A stretch of 64,000 bases of DNA, from NCBI RefSeq assembly GCF_055900595.2, contig NZ_CM148325.1; one strand, given 5' to 3'. A program made the translations under genes and the position numbers. Shown here piece by piece: positions 9,655-41,939 of the stretch (the stretch's first letter is position 1; the number at the start of each line of letters is the position of its first letter). The notes beneath the pieces were generated by a model. That model worked only from the letters and a program-made list of their open reading frames with translations, searched no databases and was not told where the DNA came from.

Positions 9655-11208
9655 ATGCAAATGATTACCTCGCGACAAAACAGATTATTACGATTCCTTC
9701 TACCACGAAGGGAATATACGACTATTGTTACGATTGCCGGCTATTTAAATGTTTCGGAAAAAACCATTCAACGTGATTTACGTTTACTTGAGCAATGGCT
9801 GGGGCAATGGAGAATAAATGTTGAGAAGCGTGCTGGCGCGGGTGTGATGTTAAGCGCGGAGAATATTGCTGATTTGCTGCATCTTGATCATTTGTTGGTG
9901 GCAGAATGTGAAGAGATTGATGGTGTAATGAATAATGCCAGGCGCGTTAAAATAGCGTCGCAGTTATTAAGTGAAACACCGAATGAAACGTCGATCAGTA
10001 AATTGTCAGAACGCTACTTTATCAGCGGAGCCTCTATTGTTAATGACCTGAGAGTAATTGAGTCCTGGCTTGCGCCGTTGGGGTTATCGTTGATCCGCAG
10101 CCCAAGTGGTACGCATATTGAAGGTAGTGAAGGGCAAGTCCGACAGGCAATGGCATTACTGATTAACGGCATTATTAACCATAATGAGCCGCAAGGTGTC
10201 GTGTATTCACGTCTGGATCCCGGAAGCTATAAAGCATTAGTCCATTATTTTGGAGAGGAAGAAGTGTTATTTGTCCAGTCATTGTTACTGGATATGGAAA
10301 ATGAATTAAGTTGGTCTTTGGGAGAACCTTATTACGTTAACATTTTTACTCACATCCTTATTATGATGTATCGCAACACGCACGGGAATGCGTTATCAAG
10401 AGAAGAAGATCAAACCAGGCAATATGATGAAAATATCTTTAATGTTGCCAGTCAGATGATTCATAAGATAGAACAACGAATTGCACATACATTGCCCGAT
10501 GATGAAGTCTGGTTTATTTATCAATATATCATTTCATCAGGTGTGGCGATTGATGGACAAAAAGATGTTAGCATTATTTCACATATGCAGGCCAGCAATG
10601 AAGCGCGTCTGATTACCTGGCGTTTAATTACGGTATTCAGTGACATCGTGGACTGCGATTTTAGTGAAGACAGCGCATTATATGATGGCTTGTTGGTTCA
10701 TATTAAGCCGCTGATTAACCGTTTAAATTATCGCATTCATATCCGTAATCCATTGCTGGAAGATATTAAAGCAGAATTAGCGGATGTCTGGCGGTTGACG
10801 CAATATGTGGTGAATCAGGTATTTAAAACCTGGGGTGAGAATGCAGTGAGCGAGGATGAAGTGGGTTACCTGACCGTTCATTTTCAGGCTGCGATGGAGC
10901 GGCAAATTGCCCGTAAACGTGTATTACTGGTCTGTTCAACCGGAATCGGAACTTCGCATCTACTGAAAAGCCGTATTCTGCGAGCATTTCCTGAATGGAC
11001 GATTGTTGATGTTATTTCAGCAGCGAATTTATCACAGGTTTTGCCTGACAATATCGAACTGATTATTTCGACCATTAATTTGCCTACAGTCACTATGCCG
11101 GTCGCTTATGTTACCGCTTTTTTTAATGATGCCGATATTAAGCGGGTCACTGAAATGGTGATTACGGAAAAATTACATCATGCGACGTCTCGGGTCGTTG
11201 AAATTTAA
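9655..11208 (+). CDS. PRD-containing PTS-regulated transcriptional activator (HTH + PRDs + EIIB-like domain), frz operon regulator
   Basis: 517 aa; N-terminal HTH (TIVTIAGYLNVSEKTIQRDLRLLEQW), central PRD-like region, C-terminal EIIB-like segment RVLLVCSTGIGTSHLLKSR. Confidence 0.8.
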   Translation: MQMITSRQNRLLRFLLPRREYTTIVTIAGYLNVSEKTIQRDLRLLEQWLGQWRINVEKRAGAGVMLSAENIADLLHLDHLLVAECEEIDGVMNNARRVKIASQLLSETPNETSISKLSERYFISGASIVNDLRVIESWLAPLGLSLIRSPSGTHIEGSEGQVRQAMALLINGIINHNEPQGVVYSRLDPGSYKALVHYFGEEEVLFVQSLLLDMENELSWSLGEPYYVNIFTHILIMMYRNTHGNALSREEDQTRQYDENIFNVASQMIHKIEQRIAHTLPDDEVWFIYQYIISSGVAIDGQKDVSIISHMQASNEARLITWRLITVFSDIVDCDFSEDSALYDGLLVHIKPLINRLNYRIHIRNPLLEDIKAELADVWRLTQYVVNQVFKTWGENAVSEDEVGYLTVHFQAAMERQIARKRVLLVCSTGIGTSHLLKSRILRAFPEWTIVDVISAANLSQVLPDNIELIISTINLPTVTMPVAYVTAFFNDADIKRVTEMVITEKLHHATSRVVEI

Positions 11209-11234
11209 TGTCAGAATTTTATGAGGTATGACGA

Positions 11235-11705
11235 ATGGACATAACAAAAATCCTGAATACGAATCGCGTTATTTTAGATATGCAAGCGACGAATAAAGCG
11301 GAGGCGATTGAAGAATTAACTAATCTTCTCAAAAAAGATGGTGCGATCGATTGTCGGGAAACCTTTATTAAAGATGTCTGGCAGCGCGAAGCGGAAGGCT
11401 CGACTGGTTTTGAAAATCATATTGCGATCCCGCATGGTAAATCTTCAGCTGTGATTAATACTACGCTGGCAATTGGCCGTACCCGGCAGGATATTCCCTG
11501 GGAAACGCTGGATGGCAGTAGCGTGCGCTGTATTATTTTATTTGCGGTACGTCTTGAAGATCAAAATACCACCCATATCCGTTTACTTTCCCAGGTCGCG
11601 GGCGCGCTGGCGGATGATGACATCATAGAACAATTGTTAGTTGAGACGAGTCCGCAAAAAATCATTGATCTCTTTAGTCAGTATGCACAATCCGATGTCT
11701 GCTAA
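11235..11705 (+). CDS. PTS fructose-family EIIA component
   Basis: 156 aa; EIIA(Fru/Mtl/Ntr) phosphorylation-site motif HIAIPHG. Confidence 0.8.
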   Translation: MDITKILNTNRVILDMQATNKAEAIEELTNLLKKDGAIDCRETFIKDVWQREAEGSTGFENHIAIPHGKSSAVINTTLAIGRTRQDIPWETLDGSSVRCIILFAVRLEDQNTTHIRLLSQVAGALADDDIIEQLLVETSPQKIIDLFSQYAQSDVC

Positions 11706-11722
11706 ATAACAGGGAGTATGTC

Positions 11723-12037
11723 ATGAATATTGTCTGTGTTGCCGCCTGTACGGCGGGTATTGCTCATACCTATATTGCTCGTGAAAAGTTAATCAAAGGA
11801 GCAAAAGCTCTGGGCCATACCATTAAAGTTGAAACCCAGGGAACCATTGGTACAGAAAATGAATTACAGGCGGCAGATATCTCTGCTGCTGACGTCGTGA
11901 TTCTTGCTGTAGATGTGAAAATAAAAGGAGAAGAACGCTTCACCAATAAACGTATTGTGCGAGTAAAGACAGAGATTGTCATTAAATCGCCCGTTCAATT
12001 TCTTGAAAAGGTCGAAAAATCACTGGGAAACAAATGA
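11723..12037 (+). CDS. PTS fructose-family EIIB component
   Basis: 104 aa; motif CTAGIAHTYIA matches fructose-type EIIB CxxGIAHT active-site Cys loop. Confidence 0.8.
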   Translation: MNIVCVAACTAGIAHTYIAREKLIKGAKALGHTIKVETQGTIGTENELQAADISAADVVILAVDVKIKGEERFTNKRIVRVKTEIVIKSPVQFLEKVEKSLGNK

Positions 12038-12061
12038 TCCTTATACTGGAGGGATCTTAAT

Positions 12062-13153
12062 ATGAAAGACAATAAAATTCCGGTTTCACAGGAAATTAAA
12101 AAACATTTATTAACCGGCATCTCGTGGATGATACCCCTTATTGTGGCCGCCGGGATATGTATTGCGTTGGGGCAAGTTCTTGGCGGTACAGATGTTGGTG
12201 AAAAAACAGGAACAATCCCGTGGATGCTTAATCAGATTGGCGGCTGGGGAATGGGGCTGATTGTGCCGCTGATTAGCGCGGCAATTGCCTATTCTATTGC
12301 CGATCGTCCTGGATTTGCCCCGGGCCTGATTGTCGGCTTTCTCTGCGGGCAAATCCATACCGGATTTATTGGCGGTATGTTGGGTGGTTTCCTGGTGGGC
12401 TACACCATTTTGCTACTTAAACGCTATATCCGCCTGCCGCAGTCGATGCAAGGACTCATGCCAATCATGGTGTTGCCGGTATTAAGCACCATTATCGGTG
12501 GGCTGTTAATGATGACGCTGATTGGTAAACCCATCGCCTGGTTACAAGAAGCACTGATTCATTTGCTCGAGTCGATGCAGGGCGGATCGCGCTTCCTGAT
12601 GGGGGCCATACTTGGCGCGATGGCAACCTTCGATTTCGGTGGTCCGGTAAATAAAACAATGTCGTTGTTTTCCGATGGCTTGCTGGTCAGCGGCGTCTAT
12701 GGGCCAGAAGCCGTGAAATTTGTCGGCTCAATCATCCCTCCGTTTGGCATCACACTTTCGTTCTTACTGACACGCCATAAATACACCCGTGCGGAGCGCG
12801 AGGCGCTGAAAGCCGCGTTTCCGATGGGGATCTGCATGATCACTGAAGGAGTCATTCCAATCGCCGCGCGTGACTTGCTGCGAGTGGTGGGATCTTGTGT
12901 GGTGGCTTCTGCGGTAGCTGGCGGCTTGATCATGGTGTGGGGCGTGGAGAGTCCGGTTCCGCATGGCGGCCTGTTTGTTGTGCCTTTGTTCACCCATCCT
13001 CTGCTGTTTTGCCTGGCGCTGGGTATAGGCACGGTGATTTGTGGCGTGATGCTTTCACTCTGGAAGAAACCGGTAACGGAACGTGACGAAGAGTTTGACG
13101 AACTGAGCGATCAAAAGCTGAAAGATGAAGAGATCACTTTCACCCTCGAATAA
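12062..13153 (+). CDS. PTS fructose-family EIIC permease
   Basis: 363 aa polytopic membrane protein directly after EIIA/EIIB genes. Confidence 0.8.
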   Translation: MKDNKIPVSQEIKKHLLTGISWMIPLIVAAGICIALGQVLGGTDVGEKTGTIPWMLNQIGGWGMGLIVPLISAAIAYSIADRPGFAPGLIVGFLCGQIHTGFIGGMLGGFLVGYTILLLKRYIRLPQSMQGLMPIMVLPVLSTIIGGLLMMTLIGKPIAWLQEALIHLLESMQGGSRFLMGAILGAMATFDFGGPVNKTMSLFSDGLLVSGVYGPEAVKFVGSIIPPFGITLSFLLTRHKYTRAEREALKAAFPMGICMITEGVIPIAARDLLRVVGSCVVASAVAGGLIMVWGVESPVPHGGLFVVPLFTHPLLFCLALGIGTVICGVMLSLWKKPVTERDEEFDELSDQKLKDEEITFTLE

Positions 13154-13164
13154 CCGGAGGCCCT

Positions 13165-14016
13165 ATGTTTGCCGATATGAAAAGTATGGTGATGAAAGCC
13201 TGGCATGAACATTACGCCTTGCTGGCGATCAACTGTATGAATCTGGAAAGTGCTCACGCAGCTATCCGCGTGGCGGAGAAGAATCGCGCTCCGATCATTC
13301 TCAATCTCTATCAGGGGCATCTGGCGCATTTTCCTGCACCCGTCGCGGCGGCAGTGGTTAAAACGCTCGCGGAATCTGCCTCAGTACCGGTCGCTCTGGC
13401 GCTTGATCATGGCAAAAATCCGGACTGTATTCGTCAGGCGTTTCGTGCTGGTTTCAGCGGATTAATGATTGATGCTTCTGCTTTTCCCCTGGAGGAAAAC
13501 GTGCGCCAGACCAGGGCGGTGGTGGAACTCGCCGCCGGCGCGCAGCTCTGCGTGGAAGGCGAACTGGGCCATCTGGCAGATGCGCCGCGTTACGACCAGG
13601 CCACCAATGCCGACCTGATGACGCAACCCACTGATGTGGAAACGTTTATCGCGCAGACAGGCATTGATCTACTGGCCGTCTCGGTAGGCACGGCGCACGG
13701 CATGTACGCGCCTGGTGTTGTACCTGCTATTGATTTTCAGCGTCTGGCGGAGATTTTCCACTGCTCGAGCGTGCCTCTGGCATTACATGGCGGTAGCGGT
13801 ACGCCGTTCGATCAGCTCCAGCTCTGTACGACGCTGGGGGTAGCAAAAATCAACGTGGGGGCGGCCATTTTTGAACGGGGGAAATCCGCGCTCCTGCATA
13901 CCCTCTGTCACGATATATCCATTGAACTGGTGGACGCGCTGAAAGCTATGGAACTGGCCTTCGAAGAAGCGGTTACACCGTATTTACAGGCGAGCGGCTC
14001 TATCGGCAAAGCCTGA
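13165..14016 (+). CDS. class II ketose-bisphosphate aldolase (GatY/KbaY/FbaA family), paralogue 1
   Basis: 283 aa; class II aldolase signature region ...LALDHGKN... and GxxxGxxKINV-type C-terminal pattern. Confidence 0.8.
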   Translation: MFADMKSMVMKAWHEHYALLAINCMNLESAHAAIRVAEKNRAPIILNLYQGHLAHFPAPVAAAVVKTLAESASVPVALALDHGKNPDCIRQAFRAGFSGLMIDASAFPLEENVRQTRAVVELAAGAQLCVEGELGHLADAPRYDQATNADLMTQPTDVETFIAQTGIDLLAVSVGTAHGMYAPGVVPAIDFQRLAEIFHCSSVPLALHGGSGTPFDQLQLCTTLGVAKINVGAAIFERGKSALLHTLCHDISIELVDALKAMELAFEEAVTPYLQASGSIGKA

Positions 14017-27610: not shown

Positions 27611-29954
<2,344 letters not shown>

Positions 29955-30205
29955 GGTTCTCTCCCTAAAAATCTGTCTGGCAGGGTAGCGATTTGTGCGC
30001 ATTGTCACGATTGAGATTTTTTAAGGTGAGAGGGAATTGATAACTTGTAGTTATGTGAAATTGTTATTTTCTGTAGTGTGAATGCATTATTCTGATTTCG
30101 TGATAAGTAAAATGCATTAGAAAAAGTATGGAGTAATTAAACGTGAGGACGAAACTATATGCGTAGCGCCGCTGTAATTTACAACGGCCTACGGAGATAT
30201 GTTGT

Positions 30206-31069
30206 TTACTCAATATTCTGGATTTGCTCGCGCATCTGCTCGATCAACACTTTCAGCTCGATGGCAGAGTTTGTCACTTCGGCATTGATAGACTTCGAGG
30301 CCAGGGTGTTTGACTCGCGGTTGAACTCCTGCATCATAAAGTCCAGACGACGACCAACGGCTTCTTTTTTCTTCAGAATGTTGTAGGTCTCTTTAACATG
30401 CGCTTCGAGGCGGTCCAACTCTTCGGCAACGTCAATTCGTTGTGCCAGCAGAACCAACTCCTGCTCCAGACGGTTGTTCTCCAACTGAACCTGAGCATCT
30501 TCCAGCTTAGCGACCAGACGCTCACGCTGCCATTGCAGGATTTCCGGCATATGGGCGCGGACTTTGACCACTTCGGCGGTAACGCCTTCCAGACGCTGCT
30601 CGATCAATGCTTTCAGCGCCTGACCTTCGGTTTCGCGCGCGACGATAAAGTCATCCAGCGTACCATCCAGCGCCGCGAGAATTTCAGCAGCAATCGCGTC
30701 GAGATCCTGCTCCTGGGCTGCCATCACGCCTGGCCAACGGAGAATATCAACCGGGTTGATTTCCCCTTCGTCACTCTGCATTTTTACCCAGTTCGCGGCA
30801 GTTACCAGCTGTTTAGCCAGTTTTTCGTTGAGGATCAGCTCACCTTGTGCGCTGACATCTGGCTCATAGCGCAGGGTACATTCCACTTTACCACGCGTCA
30901 GGCGAGAACGAATACGCTCGCGAACGACAGGTTCAAGGCTACGGAACTGCTCCGGCAGACGAAAGTAAGTTTCCAGATAACGCTGGTTTACCGAGCGCAT
31001 TTCCCAGGTTGCGCTCCCCCATTCACCCTTGATTTCACGCCGGGCGTAGGCGGTCATACTGCGGATCAT
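30206..31069 (-). CDS. yicC: YicC-family stress-induced protein
   Basis: 287 aa; YicC N/C-terminal domain pattern; divergent from rph-pyrE. Confidence 0.85.
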   Translation of the reverse strand: MIRSMTAYARREIKGEWGSATWEMRSVNQRYLETYFRLPEQFRSLEPVVRERIRSRLTRGKVECTLRYEPDVSAQGELILNEKLAKQLVTAANWVKMQSDEGEINPVDILRWPGVMAAQEQDLDAIAAEILAALDGTLDDFIVARETEGQALKALIEQRLEGVTAEVVKVRAHMPEILQWQRERLVAKLEDAQVQLENNRLEQELVLLAQRIDVAEELDRLEAHVKETYNILKKKEAVGRRLDFMMQEFNRESNTLASKSINAEVTNSAIELKVLIEQMREQIQNIE

Positions 31070-31195
31070 AGACGTTCCTGTTTATAAAAGGAGAGGTGGA
31101 AGGATTATAGCCATCGATGCCTTGTCAGGATAGGAATAACCGCCGGAAGTCCGTATAATGCGCAGCCACATTTGTTTCAAGCCGGAGATTTCAAT

Positions 31196-31912
31196 ATGCG
31201 TCCAGCAGGCCGTAGCAATAATCAGGTGCGTCCCGTTACCCTGACTCGTAACTATACAAAACATGCAGAAGGCTCGGTGCTGGTCGAATTTGGCGATACC
31301 AAAGTGTTGTGTACCGCCTCTATTGAAGAAGGCGTGCCGCGCTTCCTGAAAGGTCAGGGCCAGGGCTGGATCACCGCAGAATACGGTATGCTGCCGCGTT
31401 CTACTCATACCCGTAATGCCCGTGAAGCGGCGAAGGGTAAGCAGGGCGGCCGCACGATGGAAATCCAGCGTCTGATCGCTCGTGCATTGCGCGCCGCAGT
31501 AGATTTGAAAGCCCTCGGTGAGTTTACTATTACGCTGGACTGCGACGTACTTCAGGCTGATGGCGGCACCCGCACTGCTTCTATCACCGGTGCTTGTGTT
31601 GCACTAGCCGATGCCCTGAATAAACTGGTTGAAAATGGCAAGCTGAAAACCAACCCGATGAAAGGGATGGTAGCCGCGGTTTCTGTCGGGATTGTGAACG
31701 GCGAAGCGGTTTGCGATCTGGAATACGTTGAAGACTCTGCCGCTGAAACGGACATGAACGTGGTGATGACCGAAGACGGGCGCATCATTGAAGTGCAGGG
31801 AACGGCGGAAGGCGAGCCGTTTACCCATGAAGAGCTACTCACCTTGTTGGCGCTGGCCCGAGGGGGAATCGAATCCATTGTAGCGACGCAGAAGGCGGCG
31901 CTGGCAAACTGA
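31196..31912 (+). CDS. rph: ribonuclease PH (apparently full-length, 238 aa)
   Basis: From [30 protein letters not shown]; reads through to a C-terminus ending ...ATQKAALAN just before the pyrE attenuator. Confidence 0.9.
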
Positions 31913-31919
31913 TTTTTAA

Positions 31920-31945
31920 GGCGACTGATGAGTCGCCTTTTTTTT
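31920..31945 (+). promoter_or_regulatory. pyrE attenuator (intrinsic terminator hairpin + U-tract between rph and pyrE)
   Basis: GGCGACTGATGAGTCGCC hairpin followed by TTTTTTTT, 30 nt upstream of the pyrE start. Confidence 0.65.
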
Positions 31946-31977
31946 GTCTGTAGAAAAGTAAGATGAGGAGCGAAGGC

Positions 31978-32619
31978 ATGAAACCATATCAGCGCCAGTT
32001 TATTGAATTTGCGCTTGGCAAGCAGGTATTAAAGTTTGGCGAGTTTACGCTGAAGTCCGGGCGCAAAAGCCCCTATTTCTTCAACGCCGGGCTGTTTAAT
32101 ACCGGGCGCGATCTGGCACTGTTAGGCCGTTTTTACGCTGAAGCGTTAGTGGATTCCGGCATTGAGTTCGATCTGCTGTTTGGCCCTGCTTACAAAGGGA
32201 TCCCGATTGCCACCACAACTGCCGTGGCGCTGGCGGAGCATCATGACCTGGACCTGCCGTACTGCTTTAACCGCAAAGAAGCAAAAGACCACGGTGAAGG
32301 CGGCAATCTGGTTGGTAGCGCGTTACAAGGACGCGTAATGCTGGTGGATGATGTGATCACCGCCGGAACGGCGATTCGCGAGTCGATGGAAATTATTCAG
32401 GCCAATGGCGCGACGCTTGCTGGTGTATTGATTTCGCTCGATCGTCAGGAGCGTGGTCGCGGCGAGATTTCGGCAATTCAGGAAGTTGAGCGTGATTACA
32501 ACTGCAAAGTGATCTCTATCATCACCCTGAAAGACCTGATTGCTTATCTTGAAGAGAAGCCGGAAATGGCGGAACATCTGGCGGCGGTTAAGGCCTATCG
32601 CGAAGAGTTCGGCGTTTAA
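31978..32619 (+). CDS. pyrE: orotate phosphoribosyltransferase
   Basis: 213 aa from [13 protein letters not shown]; PRPP-binding motif [13 protein letters not shown]. Confidence 0.9.
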
Positions 32620-32690
32620 AAATATGCGCTGCGCAGGTTTTTACTGTGCGCAGCGTGATGCGGTTTAAGATATCGTGTTAATCTGCTTTC

Positions 32691-32883
32691 GCCAGCAGTG
32701 GCAATAGCGTTTCCGGCCTTTTGTGCCGGGAGGGTCGGCGAGTCGCCGACTTAACGCCAGTAGTTTGTCCAGATACCCAAAGTCGCTCCATTGTACTTAA
32801 GTACGCTTCGCGTACGTCGCGCTGACGCGCTCAGTACAGTTACGCGCCTTCGGGATAGTTTGAGGGTATTGCCGCTGTTGGTG
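32691..32883 (+). ncRNA. retron msr-msd region (template/primer RNA for msDNA), bounded by a1/a2 inverted repeats
   Basis: a1 GCCAGCAGTGGCAATAGC (32691-32708) pairs with a2 GGTATTGCCGCTGTTGGT (about 32865-32882) at 17/18 positions when G-U pairs are allowed; internal palindromes (GTACGC-TTC-GCGTAC) fit an msd stem; lies immediately 5' of the RT gene. Confidence 0.6.
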
Positions 32884-32915
32884 CCTCTTTTGGTCGCCGT
32901 GATGTGGAGAGTGGA

Positions 32916-33875
32916 ATGGATGCTACCCGGATAACCCTTCTGGCGCTTGATTTGTTCGGCTCGCCGGGCTGGAGCGCCGATAAAGAAATACAGCGGCTGT
33001 ATGCGCTCAGTAATCATGCCGCACGCCATTACCGACGGATTATTCTTTCTAAGCGTCACGGCGGTCAGCGGGTGGTGTTAGCCCCTGATTACTTGCTCAA
33101 AACCGTACAGCGCAACATTCTTAAGAACGTCCTTTCACAATTCCCTCTTTCCCCTTTTGCTACCGCCTACCGACAGGGTCGCCCAATCGTCAGCAACGCG
33201 CAGCCTCACTGCCAACAGCCGCAGATCCTTAAACTCGATATCGAAAACTTTTTCGATAGCATTAGCTGGTTACAGGTCTGGCGTGTGTTTAGCCAGACCC
33301 AGTTGCCACGCAATGTGGTAACCATGCTGACCTGGCTTTGTTGCTATAACGACGCGTTACCGCAGGGGGCGCCAACTTCGCCTGCCATTTCCAATCTTGT
33401 GATGCGCCGTTTTGATGAGTGCATAGGGGAATGGTGTCAGGCTCGGGGAATTACCTACACCCGCTACTGCGATGACATGACCTTTTCTGGTCACTTCAAT
33501 GCCCGCCAGGTTAAAAATAAAGTATGCGGATTGTTAGCGGAGCTGGGCCTGAGCCTCAATCAACGCAAAAGTTGCCTGATAGCTGCCTGTAAGCGCCAGC
33601 AGGTAACCGGGATTGTTGTTAATCACAAGCCACAGCTTGCCCGTGAAGCGCGCCGGGCGCTGCGTCAGGAAGTACACTTGTGCCAAAAATATGGCGTTAT
33701 TTCGCATCTTAGTCATCGTGGTGAACTTGATCCTTCTGGCGATCTCCACGCACAGGCAACGGCGTATCTTTATGCTTTGCAGGGAAGAATAAACTGGTTA
33801 TTGCAAATCAATCCTGAGGATGAGGCCTTTAAACAGGCGAGGGTGAGTGTAAAGCGAATGCTGGTGGCATGGTAA
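32916..33875 (+). CDS. retron-type reverse transcriptase (Ec107-like, 319 aa)
   Basis: RT motifs LPQGAPTSPAISNL and YTRYCDDMTF (YxDD catalytic box) plus retron-specific VTG motif (QQVTGIVVNHKP); 319 aa if started at MDATRITL; located between pyrE and slmA. Confidence 0.85.
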   Translation: MDATRITLLALDLFGSPGWSADKEIQRLYALSNHAARHYRRIILSKRHGGQRVVLAPDYLLKTVQRNILKNVLSQFPLSPFATAYRQGRPIVSNAQPHCQQPQILKLDIENFFDSISWLQVWRVFSQTQLPRNVVTMLTWLCCYNDALPQGAPTSPAISNLVMRRFDECIGEWCQARGITYTRYCDDMTFSGHFNARQVKNKVCGLLAELGLSLNQRKSCLIAACKRQQVTGIVVNHKPQLAREARRALRQEVHLCQKYGVISHLSHRGELDPSGDLHAQATAYLYALQGRINWLLQINPEDEAFKQARVSVKRMLVAW

Positions 33876-33918
33876 GAAAAGCGTCAGGCAGACGTTTCTG
33901 CCTGAACGTTTGGGAGAA

Positions 33919-34515
33919 TTACTGCAACTGCGCAGCAATTAGCGGCCAGCGGGCGTCAAAGTCATCCGTCGGGCGGTATTTAAACTCGCTGCGGACAAAG
34001 CGTGACAGCATACCTTCACAGAAGGCCAGGATCTGGCTTGCCAGCAGGGTTTCGTCGGTGGTGTAACCTTCACCCTCACGCATTCTCTTTTCACGCAATA
34101 CCTGACGCAACTGCGCTTCAATACGCTCGAATAGCTGGTTGATGCGCCCTTGCAGGCGATCCTGTTCAAACATTAGTGCATGACCAGTGAGGATGCGGGT
34201 CAGGCCAGGATTACGCTCACCAAAACCGAGAAGCAGCAACACAATCAGACGCAGGCGCGCTGTGGTGTCTTTCTCATCTTTCAGAATCAGATTGATGCGA
34301 GTAATCAGGCTATCTTCGATAAACTCAATCAGGCTATCGAACATGCGGGTCTTACTGGGGAAGTGGCGATACAGTGCCGCTTCGGAAACGCCGACAGAGG
34401 CGGCCAGTTTTGCCGTCGTGATACGTTGGCTTCCATCGCTGGATTCCAGCATCAGCGCCAGAGACTGAAGTATTTCCTCGCGACGGTTCCTTTTCGCAGT
34501 TTGTTTTTCTGCCAT
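33919..34515 (-). CDS. slmA: nucleoid occlusion factor SlmA (TetR family)
   Basis: 198 aa from [20 protein letters not shown]; TetR HTH. Confidence 0.9.
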
Positions 34516-40880: not shown

Positions 40881-41939
40881 GTGGATAAGCCATTTCGAAG
40901 AATTTTGCTCATTAAGATGCGTTTTCATGGGGATATGTTATTAACTACTCCTGTCATTAGTTCGCTGAAAAAAAATTACCCTGACGCAAAAATCGATGTG
41001 CTGCTTTATCAGGATACCATCCCGATTCTGTCTGAAAATCCAGAGATTAACGCGCTCTACGGCATAAAAAATAAAAAAGCAAAAGCCTCAGAGAAAATTT
41101 CCAACTTTTTTCATCTCATCAAGGTATTACGTGCCAATAAGTATGACCTTATCGTCAATCTTACCGATCAATGGATGGTTGCTATACTGGTTCGCTTATT
41201 AAATGCCCGTGTGAAAATTTCCCAGGATTATCATCATCGGCAGTCTGCTTTTTGGCGTAAAAGCTTCACCCATCTGGTGCCGTTGCAGGGTGGAAATGTG
41301 GTGGAAAGTAACTTATCCGTGCTGACGCCACTGGGTCTCGAATCGTTGGTGAAGCAGACAACGATGAGTTACCCGCCTGCAAGCTGGAAACGAATGCGTC
41401 GCGAACTGGATCACGCAGGTGTTGGACAAAATTATGTGGTTATCCAACCTACCGCGCGGCAAATCTTCAAATGCTGGGACAACGCCAAGTTTTCCGCTGT
41501 GATTGATGCCTTACATACACGTGGCTATGAAGTCGTTCTGACGTCCGGCCCGGATAAAGACGATCTGGCCTGCGTCAATGAAATTGCGCAGGGATGCCAG
41601 ACGCCACCAGTAACGGCGTTGGCCGGAAAGGTAACCTTCCCGGAACTTGGTGCGTTAATCGATCATGCGCAGCTGTTTATTGGCGTTGATTCCGCACCGG
41701 CGCACATTGCCGCTGCAGTTAATACGCCGCTGATATCGCTGTTTGGTGCAACAGACCATATTTTCTGGCGTCCCTGGTCAAATAACATGATTCAATTCTG
41801 GGCGGGAGATTACCGGGAAATGCCAACACGCGATCAGCGTGACCGAAATGAGATGTATCTTTCGGTTATTCCGGCGGCAGATGTCATTGCTGCTGTTGAT
41901 AAATTATTGCCATCCTCCACGACAGGTACGTCGTTATGA
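40881..41939 (+). CDS. waaQ: LPS heptosyltransferase III (GT9)
   Basis: GT9 heptosyltransferase; first gene of the central waa operon; start uncertain (GTG at 40881 or ATG at MRFHGD). Confidence 0.85.
   Translation: MDKPFRRILLIKMRFHGDMLLTTPVISSLKKNYPDAKIDVLLYQDTIPILSENPEINALYGIKNKKAKASEKISNFFHLIKVLRANKYDLIVNLTDQWMVAILVRLLNARVKISQDYHHRQSAFWRKSFTHLVPLQGGNVVESNLSVLTPLGLESLVKQTTMSYPPASWKRMRRELDHAGVGQNYVVIQPTARQIFKCWDNAKFSAVIDALHTRGYEVVLTSGPDKDDLACVNEIAQGCQTPPVTALAGKVTFPELGALIDHAQLFIGVDSAPAHIAAAVNTPLISLFGATDHIFWRPWSNNMIQFWAGDYREMPTRDQRDRNEMYLSVIPAADVIAAVDKLLPSSTTGTSL

Follow-up and report, generated by a model that had tools for sequence, protein, structure and literature searches.

In E. coli K-12 the DNA-damage-inducible gene dinD lies between yicC and yicG. 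In the DNA stretch analyzed here, a 64-kb window (64,000 nucleotides of contig NZ_CM148325.1, assembly GCF_055900595.2), yicC and yicG are separated by only a short spacer. This raises the question whether dinD was lost from this chromosome or whether the spacer represents the state of the locus before dinD arrived. A sequence-only reading of the window had proposed that dinD is missing, that it is an accessory gene and that the window holds its empty site. The K-12 gene order on which it relied is correct: MG1655 is annotated with yicC (b3644), dinD (b3645) and yicG (b3646), followed by ligB.

The genes in the window are arranged as ligB (+), yicG (−), spacer, yicC (−), rph (+) and pyrE (+); the coordinates are collected in Table 1. 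The RefSeq annotation of NZ_CP098223.1, a genome that is 100% identical to the window over 29700–30500 and 99.8% identical in the retron segment described below, names the same genes. The spacer comprises 251 bp and not about 200 bp as first estimated. The spacer start at 30009 given in the sequence-only reading was an artefact of the longest possible extension of the yicG reading frame, to a GTG at 30008, since in the identical genome yicG is annotated to start with the ATG at 29954. An Rfam scan of 29800–34000 (E ≤ 1) returned nothing in the spacer, and a scan of 29900–30300 for consensus promoters and terminators yielded no site of either kind. A RyhB-like match at 31900–31945 remained below threshold (24.5 bits vs a gathering score of 55) and was taken as a chance hit.

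Table 1. Features of the yicG–yicC region and of the neighboring genes, in window coordinates
Feature	Position	Strand	Description
ligB	27658–29340	+	sequence divergent from K-12
yicG	29337–29954	−	205 aa; PF03458 Gly_transporter, trimeric intracellular cation channel family; Pfam E = 9e-43
yicG–yicC spacer	29955–30205		37.8% GC (whole window 49.3%)
yicG-proximal spacer part	29955–30128	−	174 bp, AT-rich, 35% GC; also in dinD-carrying strains
Near-invariant block in yicG-proximal spacer	~29986–30028	−	from cross-genus alignment; upstream of yicG
Putatively ancestral segment	30129–30205	−	77 bp directly 3′ of yicC stop codon; not in K-12
Conserved stem-loop	30162–30193	−	stem 13–14 bp with one bulge; loop 5 nt
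yicC	30206–31069	−	287 aa; YicC/YloC family endoribonuclease; Pfam YicC-like_N (PF03755) E = 9e-44, YicC-like_C (PF08340) E = 4e-39
rph	31196–31912	+	sequence divergent from K-12
Insertion between pyrE and slmA	32621–33917		1297 bp
Reverse transcriptase ORF	32904–33875	+	Pfam RVT_1; YCDD catalytic core

The window was compared with the K-12 locus via BLASTN at word size 7. Window positions 31100–30206 correspond to K-12 locus 2646–3540, the match stopping exactly at the yicC stop codon, and homology resumes at 30128 (window 30128–29300, K-12 locus 4701–5529). The flanking genes, their orientations and the yicC coding sequence up to its stop codon are therefore shared, and the 174-bp yicG-proximal part of the spacer is ∼90% identical between the two. 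Between the matched blocks the window carries 77 bp, for which no K-12 match was found at this word size, and K-12 carries 1160 bp. As 77 unrelated base pairs stand in place of 1160 bp, the event that separates the two alleles is a replacement. The proposal of an empty site thus held as far as the site is unoccupied; what had to be refined is that the alleles do not differ by a simple insertion or deletion. The K-12 cassette consists of a hairpin with T-run terminator right after yicC, a LexA operator (aactgtatataaatacagtt, K-12 locus 3699–3718), dinD (825 bp) and a 115-bp tail, in contrast to the 77 bp of the window with their putatively ancestral hairpin. Its GC content is 45%, compared to 53–54% for yicC and yicG. 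We found neither a recombinase in the K-12 cassette nor, beyond 6–8-mers, any terminal direct or inverted repeats at its ends.

The absence of dinD from the spacer was borne out by tblastn: with three DinD variants as queries no significant match and no DinD-like coding capacity was found anywhere in the 64 kb, and the top-scoring hit (E = 0.09) lay inside the retron reverse transcriptase gene. A LexA box (CTGT-N8-ACAG) does not occur in 29955–30205, its sole occurrence in the window being at 41739, and neither BLASTN against K-12 nor tblastn nor the box search revealed leftovers of cassette, gene or operator in the spacer. The genome-wide check made use of a chimeric query composed of the window's retron insertion and K-12 dinD (blastn 'distant' mode, word 11). 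The window's eight nearest complete genomes, 99.8–99.9% identical to it over the retron segment, match this query in its retron part alone; E. coli E2348/69, IAI39 and CE10 match both parts. As far as testable, the lineage of the window thus appears to lack dinD genome-wide, judging from these eight genomes and the window itself.

How common the two states are was determined in 5426 complete E. coli genomes. The dinD cassette is present in 4714 of them (87%) and a contiguous yicG–yicC match, that is an empty site, in 719 (∼13%). The 77-bp segment was detected in 709 genomes: 21 carry it with at least 99% identity to the window, 10 with 95–99% and 678 with 93–94%; the last group represents an ST131-like haplotype and makes up the bulk of the empty alleles. 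Strains with dinD belong to several phylogroups, including the B2 and F strains UTI89, E2348/69, IAI39 and CE10. These counts support the classification of dinD as an accessory ('shell') gene with the window showing the unoccupied form of its site, as had been suggested from the sequence. The presence or absence of dinD is an ordinary accessory-gene polymorphism at a locus already known from K-12 and unoccupied here; a literature search returned no paper on the subject.

Which allele is ancestral was judged from homology to outgroups. A YicG scan with one genome per GTDB species provided 80 loci (E. fergusonii and E. marmotae are not among them), on which YicC, DinD, YicG and LigB were searched by tblastn. 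Gaps between yicC and yicG measured 252–253 bp in 'E. coli SCPM-O-B-8794', Escherichia sp. E1V33 and E. whittamii, 258–261 bp in most Citrobacter and ∼205–230 bp in Enterobacter, Lelliottia, Raoultella and others. Spacers of E1V33, E. whittamii, SCPM-O-B-8794 and Citrobacter species align with the 77 bp of the window, hairpin included, and in these Escherichia and Citrobacter the hairpin also stands directly after the yicC stop. RNA folding gives it −25 kcal/mol (z = −4.5 vs shuffled sequences). In an alignment of 13 sequences, 13 consensus pairs are predicted, four of them with compensatory double changes. A T-run 3′ of the hairpin is present in Citrobacter but degraded in Escherichia including the window, where the terminator scan makes no call; because the T-run follows in Citrobacter, the element looks like an old yicC terminator, and it probably represents the ancestral yicC 3′-end hairpin or a putative terminator. 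Going by these alignments, the window spacer is to be read as the ancestral allele and not as a deletion scar, because deletion of the cassette could not have recreated 77 bp that are homologous to outgroup spacers.

The same intergenic site is occupied differently in other genera. Eight loci show yicC–yicG gaps of 1.3–3.6 kb with unrelated genes: a Mur-ligase-like gene in Atlantibacter, a sulfatase-family gene in Kluyvera, a CLC channel in Klebsiella, PEP mutase and Ada in K. pneumoniae, DUF3289 in Kosakonia, and a LysR gene with a metallo-beta-lactamase-fold gene in S. enterica arizonae. Across Enterobacteriaceae, the content of the yicC–yicG spacer is generally variable. A DinD homologue at this very site was found in a Pseudocitrobacter MAG (74% amino acid identity to K-12 DinD, 82% to the UTI89 form); the spacer is empty in P. 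vendiensis and P. faecalis. There, 105 bp are replaced by 1062 bp, starting right after the yicC stop, and the similarity to the E. coli cassette is confined to the coding region. Since the divergence of DinD between E. coli and Pseudocitrobacter (74–82% amino acid identity) falls between that of YicG (89%) and LigB (60%), a very old vertical presence of dinD with many losses would be compatible with divergence considered by itself.

DinD matches the profiles Pfam Bro-N, NCBIfam NF008573 (DNA damage-inducible protein D) and PHROG 8036. To our knowledge, no strong phenotype has been reported for a dinD deletion and the gene is non-essential. Full-length homologues with 53–55% identity occur in many Streptococcus satellite-phage records (Javan satellite records), and others in Thiothrix and Zymomonas plasmids and in Neisseria. 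In phage-like chromosomal islands, according to a passage in PMC4129442, the streptococcal dinD-family gene is an 'indel' gene that is optional and sits directly upstream of int. The protein family is thus the same and its gene is optional cargo in both settings; the streptococcal genes, however, reside in Firmicutes on elements that bear an integrase, whereas the E. coli copy is a stand-alone, LexA-controlled chromosomal cassette. K. pneumoniae strain 176 carries a DinD homologue (75% amino acid identity; CP125156.1, 4001–4804 of the locus) at a different chromosomal site, between ibpB and a putative transporter. This record (5.4 Mb) as well as NZ_CP141089.1 and NZ_OL790696.1 are chromosomes filed as plasmids in PLSDB. 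The Campylobacter phage A18a/A11a records MG065686.1 and MG065691.1 encode a protein 100% identical to K-12 DinD, most likely as a result of E. coli contamination or mis-assembly. Within E. coli, dinD exists in two forms with ∼50% nucleotide identity over 216 bp within the Bro-N region (K-12 locus 3790–4005, codons ∼11–82, vs UTI89 locus 4251–4466) and 97–99% identity elsewhere; the K-12 form was counted in 1899 and the UTI89 form in 2809 genomes of the complete set.

We consider it highly probable (roughly 0.85) that window 29955–30205 is the unoccupied ancestral yicC–yicG spacer and that in most E. coli its 77 bp were replaced by a foreign dinD cassette. The ancestral spacer would have combined 77 bp that contain the old 3′ hairpin of yicC and the 174-bp region upstream of yicG. 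A foreign single-gene cassette of 1160 bp and low GC content would then have taken the place of the 77 bp, bringing along dinD with its LexA operator as well as a replacement terminator for yicC. Because the cassette carries neither a recombinase nor terminal repeats, we infer that it entered once, by illegitimate recombination. Since then, homologous recombination in the conserved flanks, yicC and yicG, would have carried both the occupied and the empty allele from one lineage to another. The haplotype of the window would never have held dinD, and its yicC transcript would presumably end at the ancestral hairpin.

If the 251-bp spacer had instead been left by a deletion in descendants of a dinD-carrying ancestor, the majority status of dinD in E. 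coli and its occurrence in several phylogroups, B2 and F among them, would be readily accounted for. However, no deletion can recreate 30129–30205, a segment missing from the dinD-carrying alleles and homologous to other Escherichia and Citrobacter, and no fragment of cassette, dinD or LexA box has been left behind; a simple deletion was rejected on account of the outgroup-homologous sequence at the junction, and we regard secondary loss as extremely improbable. Considerably better placed, and to be taken as a genuine if less probable possibility, is an allelic replacement in which the lineage of the window and ST131 descend from dinD-carrying ancestors and regained the empty allele by homologous recombination, so that the site is ancestral and the dinD-less state derived. 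UTI89 (with dinD) and an ST131 strain (without) both belong to B2 and have identical YicC, YicG and Rph proteins. Their flanks are near-identical except for 21 differences in 200 positions of the spacer by the indel and 4 in 200 at the yicC end. This pattern indicates that the alleles were exchanged within a short patch of homologous recombination, and would fit an imported empty allele; UTI89 could equally have been the recipient in this B2 swap. A further argument for replacement comes from local divergence: nucleotide identity between window and K-12 is 91.9% in rph, 95.6% in yicC, 97.2% in yicG and 93.4% in ligB, as compared to 99.6–99.7% in gmk and rpoZ. One 200-bp block of rph shows 33–34 differences to K-12 and ST131 but only 10–13 to non-coli Escherichia representatives, 10 being the distance to the nearest of these genomes. 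As the stretch from rph to ligB is unusually divergent from K-12 and gmk and rpoZ are not, its sequence suggests an old or imported haplotype, against which it has to be held that ligB of the window is clearly E. coli-like and not outgroup-like.

The site has also received an element that does carry an integrase. In E. coli MS 16-3 (NZ_CP146667.1, ∼1030–13300 of the locus) 12.3 kb with genes for a tyrosine integrase, a DNA primase, an Icd-like protein and HTH regulators are located exactly between the yicC stop and an intact 77-bp segment. A 19-bp direct repeat (GGTACAGTCTTGGGTACAA), absent from the window spacer, occurs near both ends of the element, at 72 bp from one junction and 109 bp from the other. 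This location, the presence of DinD homologues next to int on streptococcal chromosomal islands and satellite phages and the low GC content of the cassette would fit a scenario in which an integrative element (satellite phage or PICI) with its attachment site at the yicC 3′ flank has decayed until only dinD is left, the empty site being attB. Yet the MS 16-3 element has no sequence similarity to the K-12 cassette and no DinD-like ORF, and it leaves intact the 77 bp that the cassette removes. The lack of terminal direct or inverted repeats in the cassette and the restriction of the likeness between the Pseudocitrobacter and E. coli cassettes to the coding region also argue against such an origin, which we therefore judge quite unlikely. 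Replacement of an ancestral spacer by a dinD cassette remains the reading that we prefer.

The closest parallel to this replacement is found 2.4 kb away from the dinD empty site. K-12 has a 36-bp spacer between pyrE and slmA; the insertion at this position of the window (Table 1) matches retron-Ec107 (Eco5), which is also present in E2348/69, IAI39 and CE10. According to a passage in PMC6868368, retron-Ec107 'replaces a palindromic 34 bp' intergenic sequence between pyrE and slmA and is without mobility features. Like the dinD cassette, it is a strain-polymorphic single-function cassette of ∼1.2–1.3 kb that stands in for a short, palindrome-bearing intergenic segment and has no recombinase or repeats. 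The cargo differs, being a reverse transcriptase with msr/msd in the retron and a Bro-N protein in the case of dinD. The states in the window are opposite, with retron-Ec107 present and dinD absent, and the likeness is one in the kind of event. Both sites could belong to one recurrent process in which short, conserved intergenic hairpins are replaced by recombinase-free single-gene cassettes of mobile origin, dinD being an SOS-controlled, domesticated satellite-phage gene that is engaged in phage conflict and subject to diversifying selection. Within this doubtful generalization, a role in phage conflict rather than in housekeeping control of RecA is proposed because two highly diverged Bro-N forms are kept.

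The presence or absence of dinD is in itself routine pan-genome variation and carries little weight alone. The locus can be used as a clean marker with three states, namely empty, K-12-type dinD and UTI89-type dinD. It also illustrates that the SOS regulon of K-12 is not the regulon of the species: without dinD, the SOS regulon of ST131-like strains and of the window lineage would have one RecA modulator fewer. DinD (PcsA) is characterized as a LexA-regulated inhibitor of RecA filaments in passages of PMC4129442 and PMC4849656 that cite Uranga et al. 2011.

Further observations concern the part of the spacer next to yicG and its boundary. A block of ∼45 nt upstream of yicG (CACCTTAAAAAATCTCAATCGTGACAATGCGCACAAATCGCTA) hardly varies across Escherichia, Enterobacter and Pseudocitrobacter and is conserved above the level of the spacer around it. 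Neither the Rfam scan nor the consensus promoter scan hit this block; given its conservation, it may be a yicG promoter or leader or another yicG regulatory element. In the E. albertii type strain (NBRC 107761) not yicC but dtpC–lysU is located directly upstream of the yicG spacer, and this rearrangement has its breakpoint just where the variable segment ends on the right (window ∼30131); E. albertii was dropped as an outgroup locus, since yicG abuts lysU and dtpC there. In the non-coli Escherichia sp. MOD1-EC7003 the contig reaches only 120 bp beyond the shared spacer on its upstream side. The K-12 dinD cassette tail is matched by bases 64–130 (87%), and bases 1–63 have no dinD match. This may reflect a different cargo that shares the same right junction. 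Because MOD1-EC7003 has a K-12-like tail, the cassette may not be confined to E. coli sensu stricto and is possibly older than assumed.
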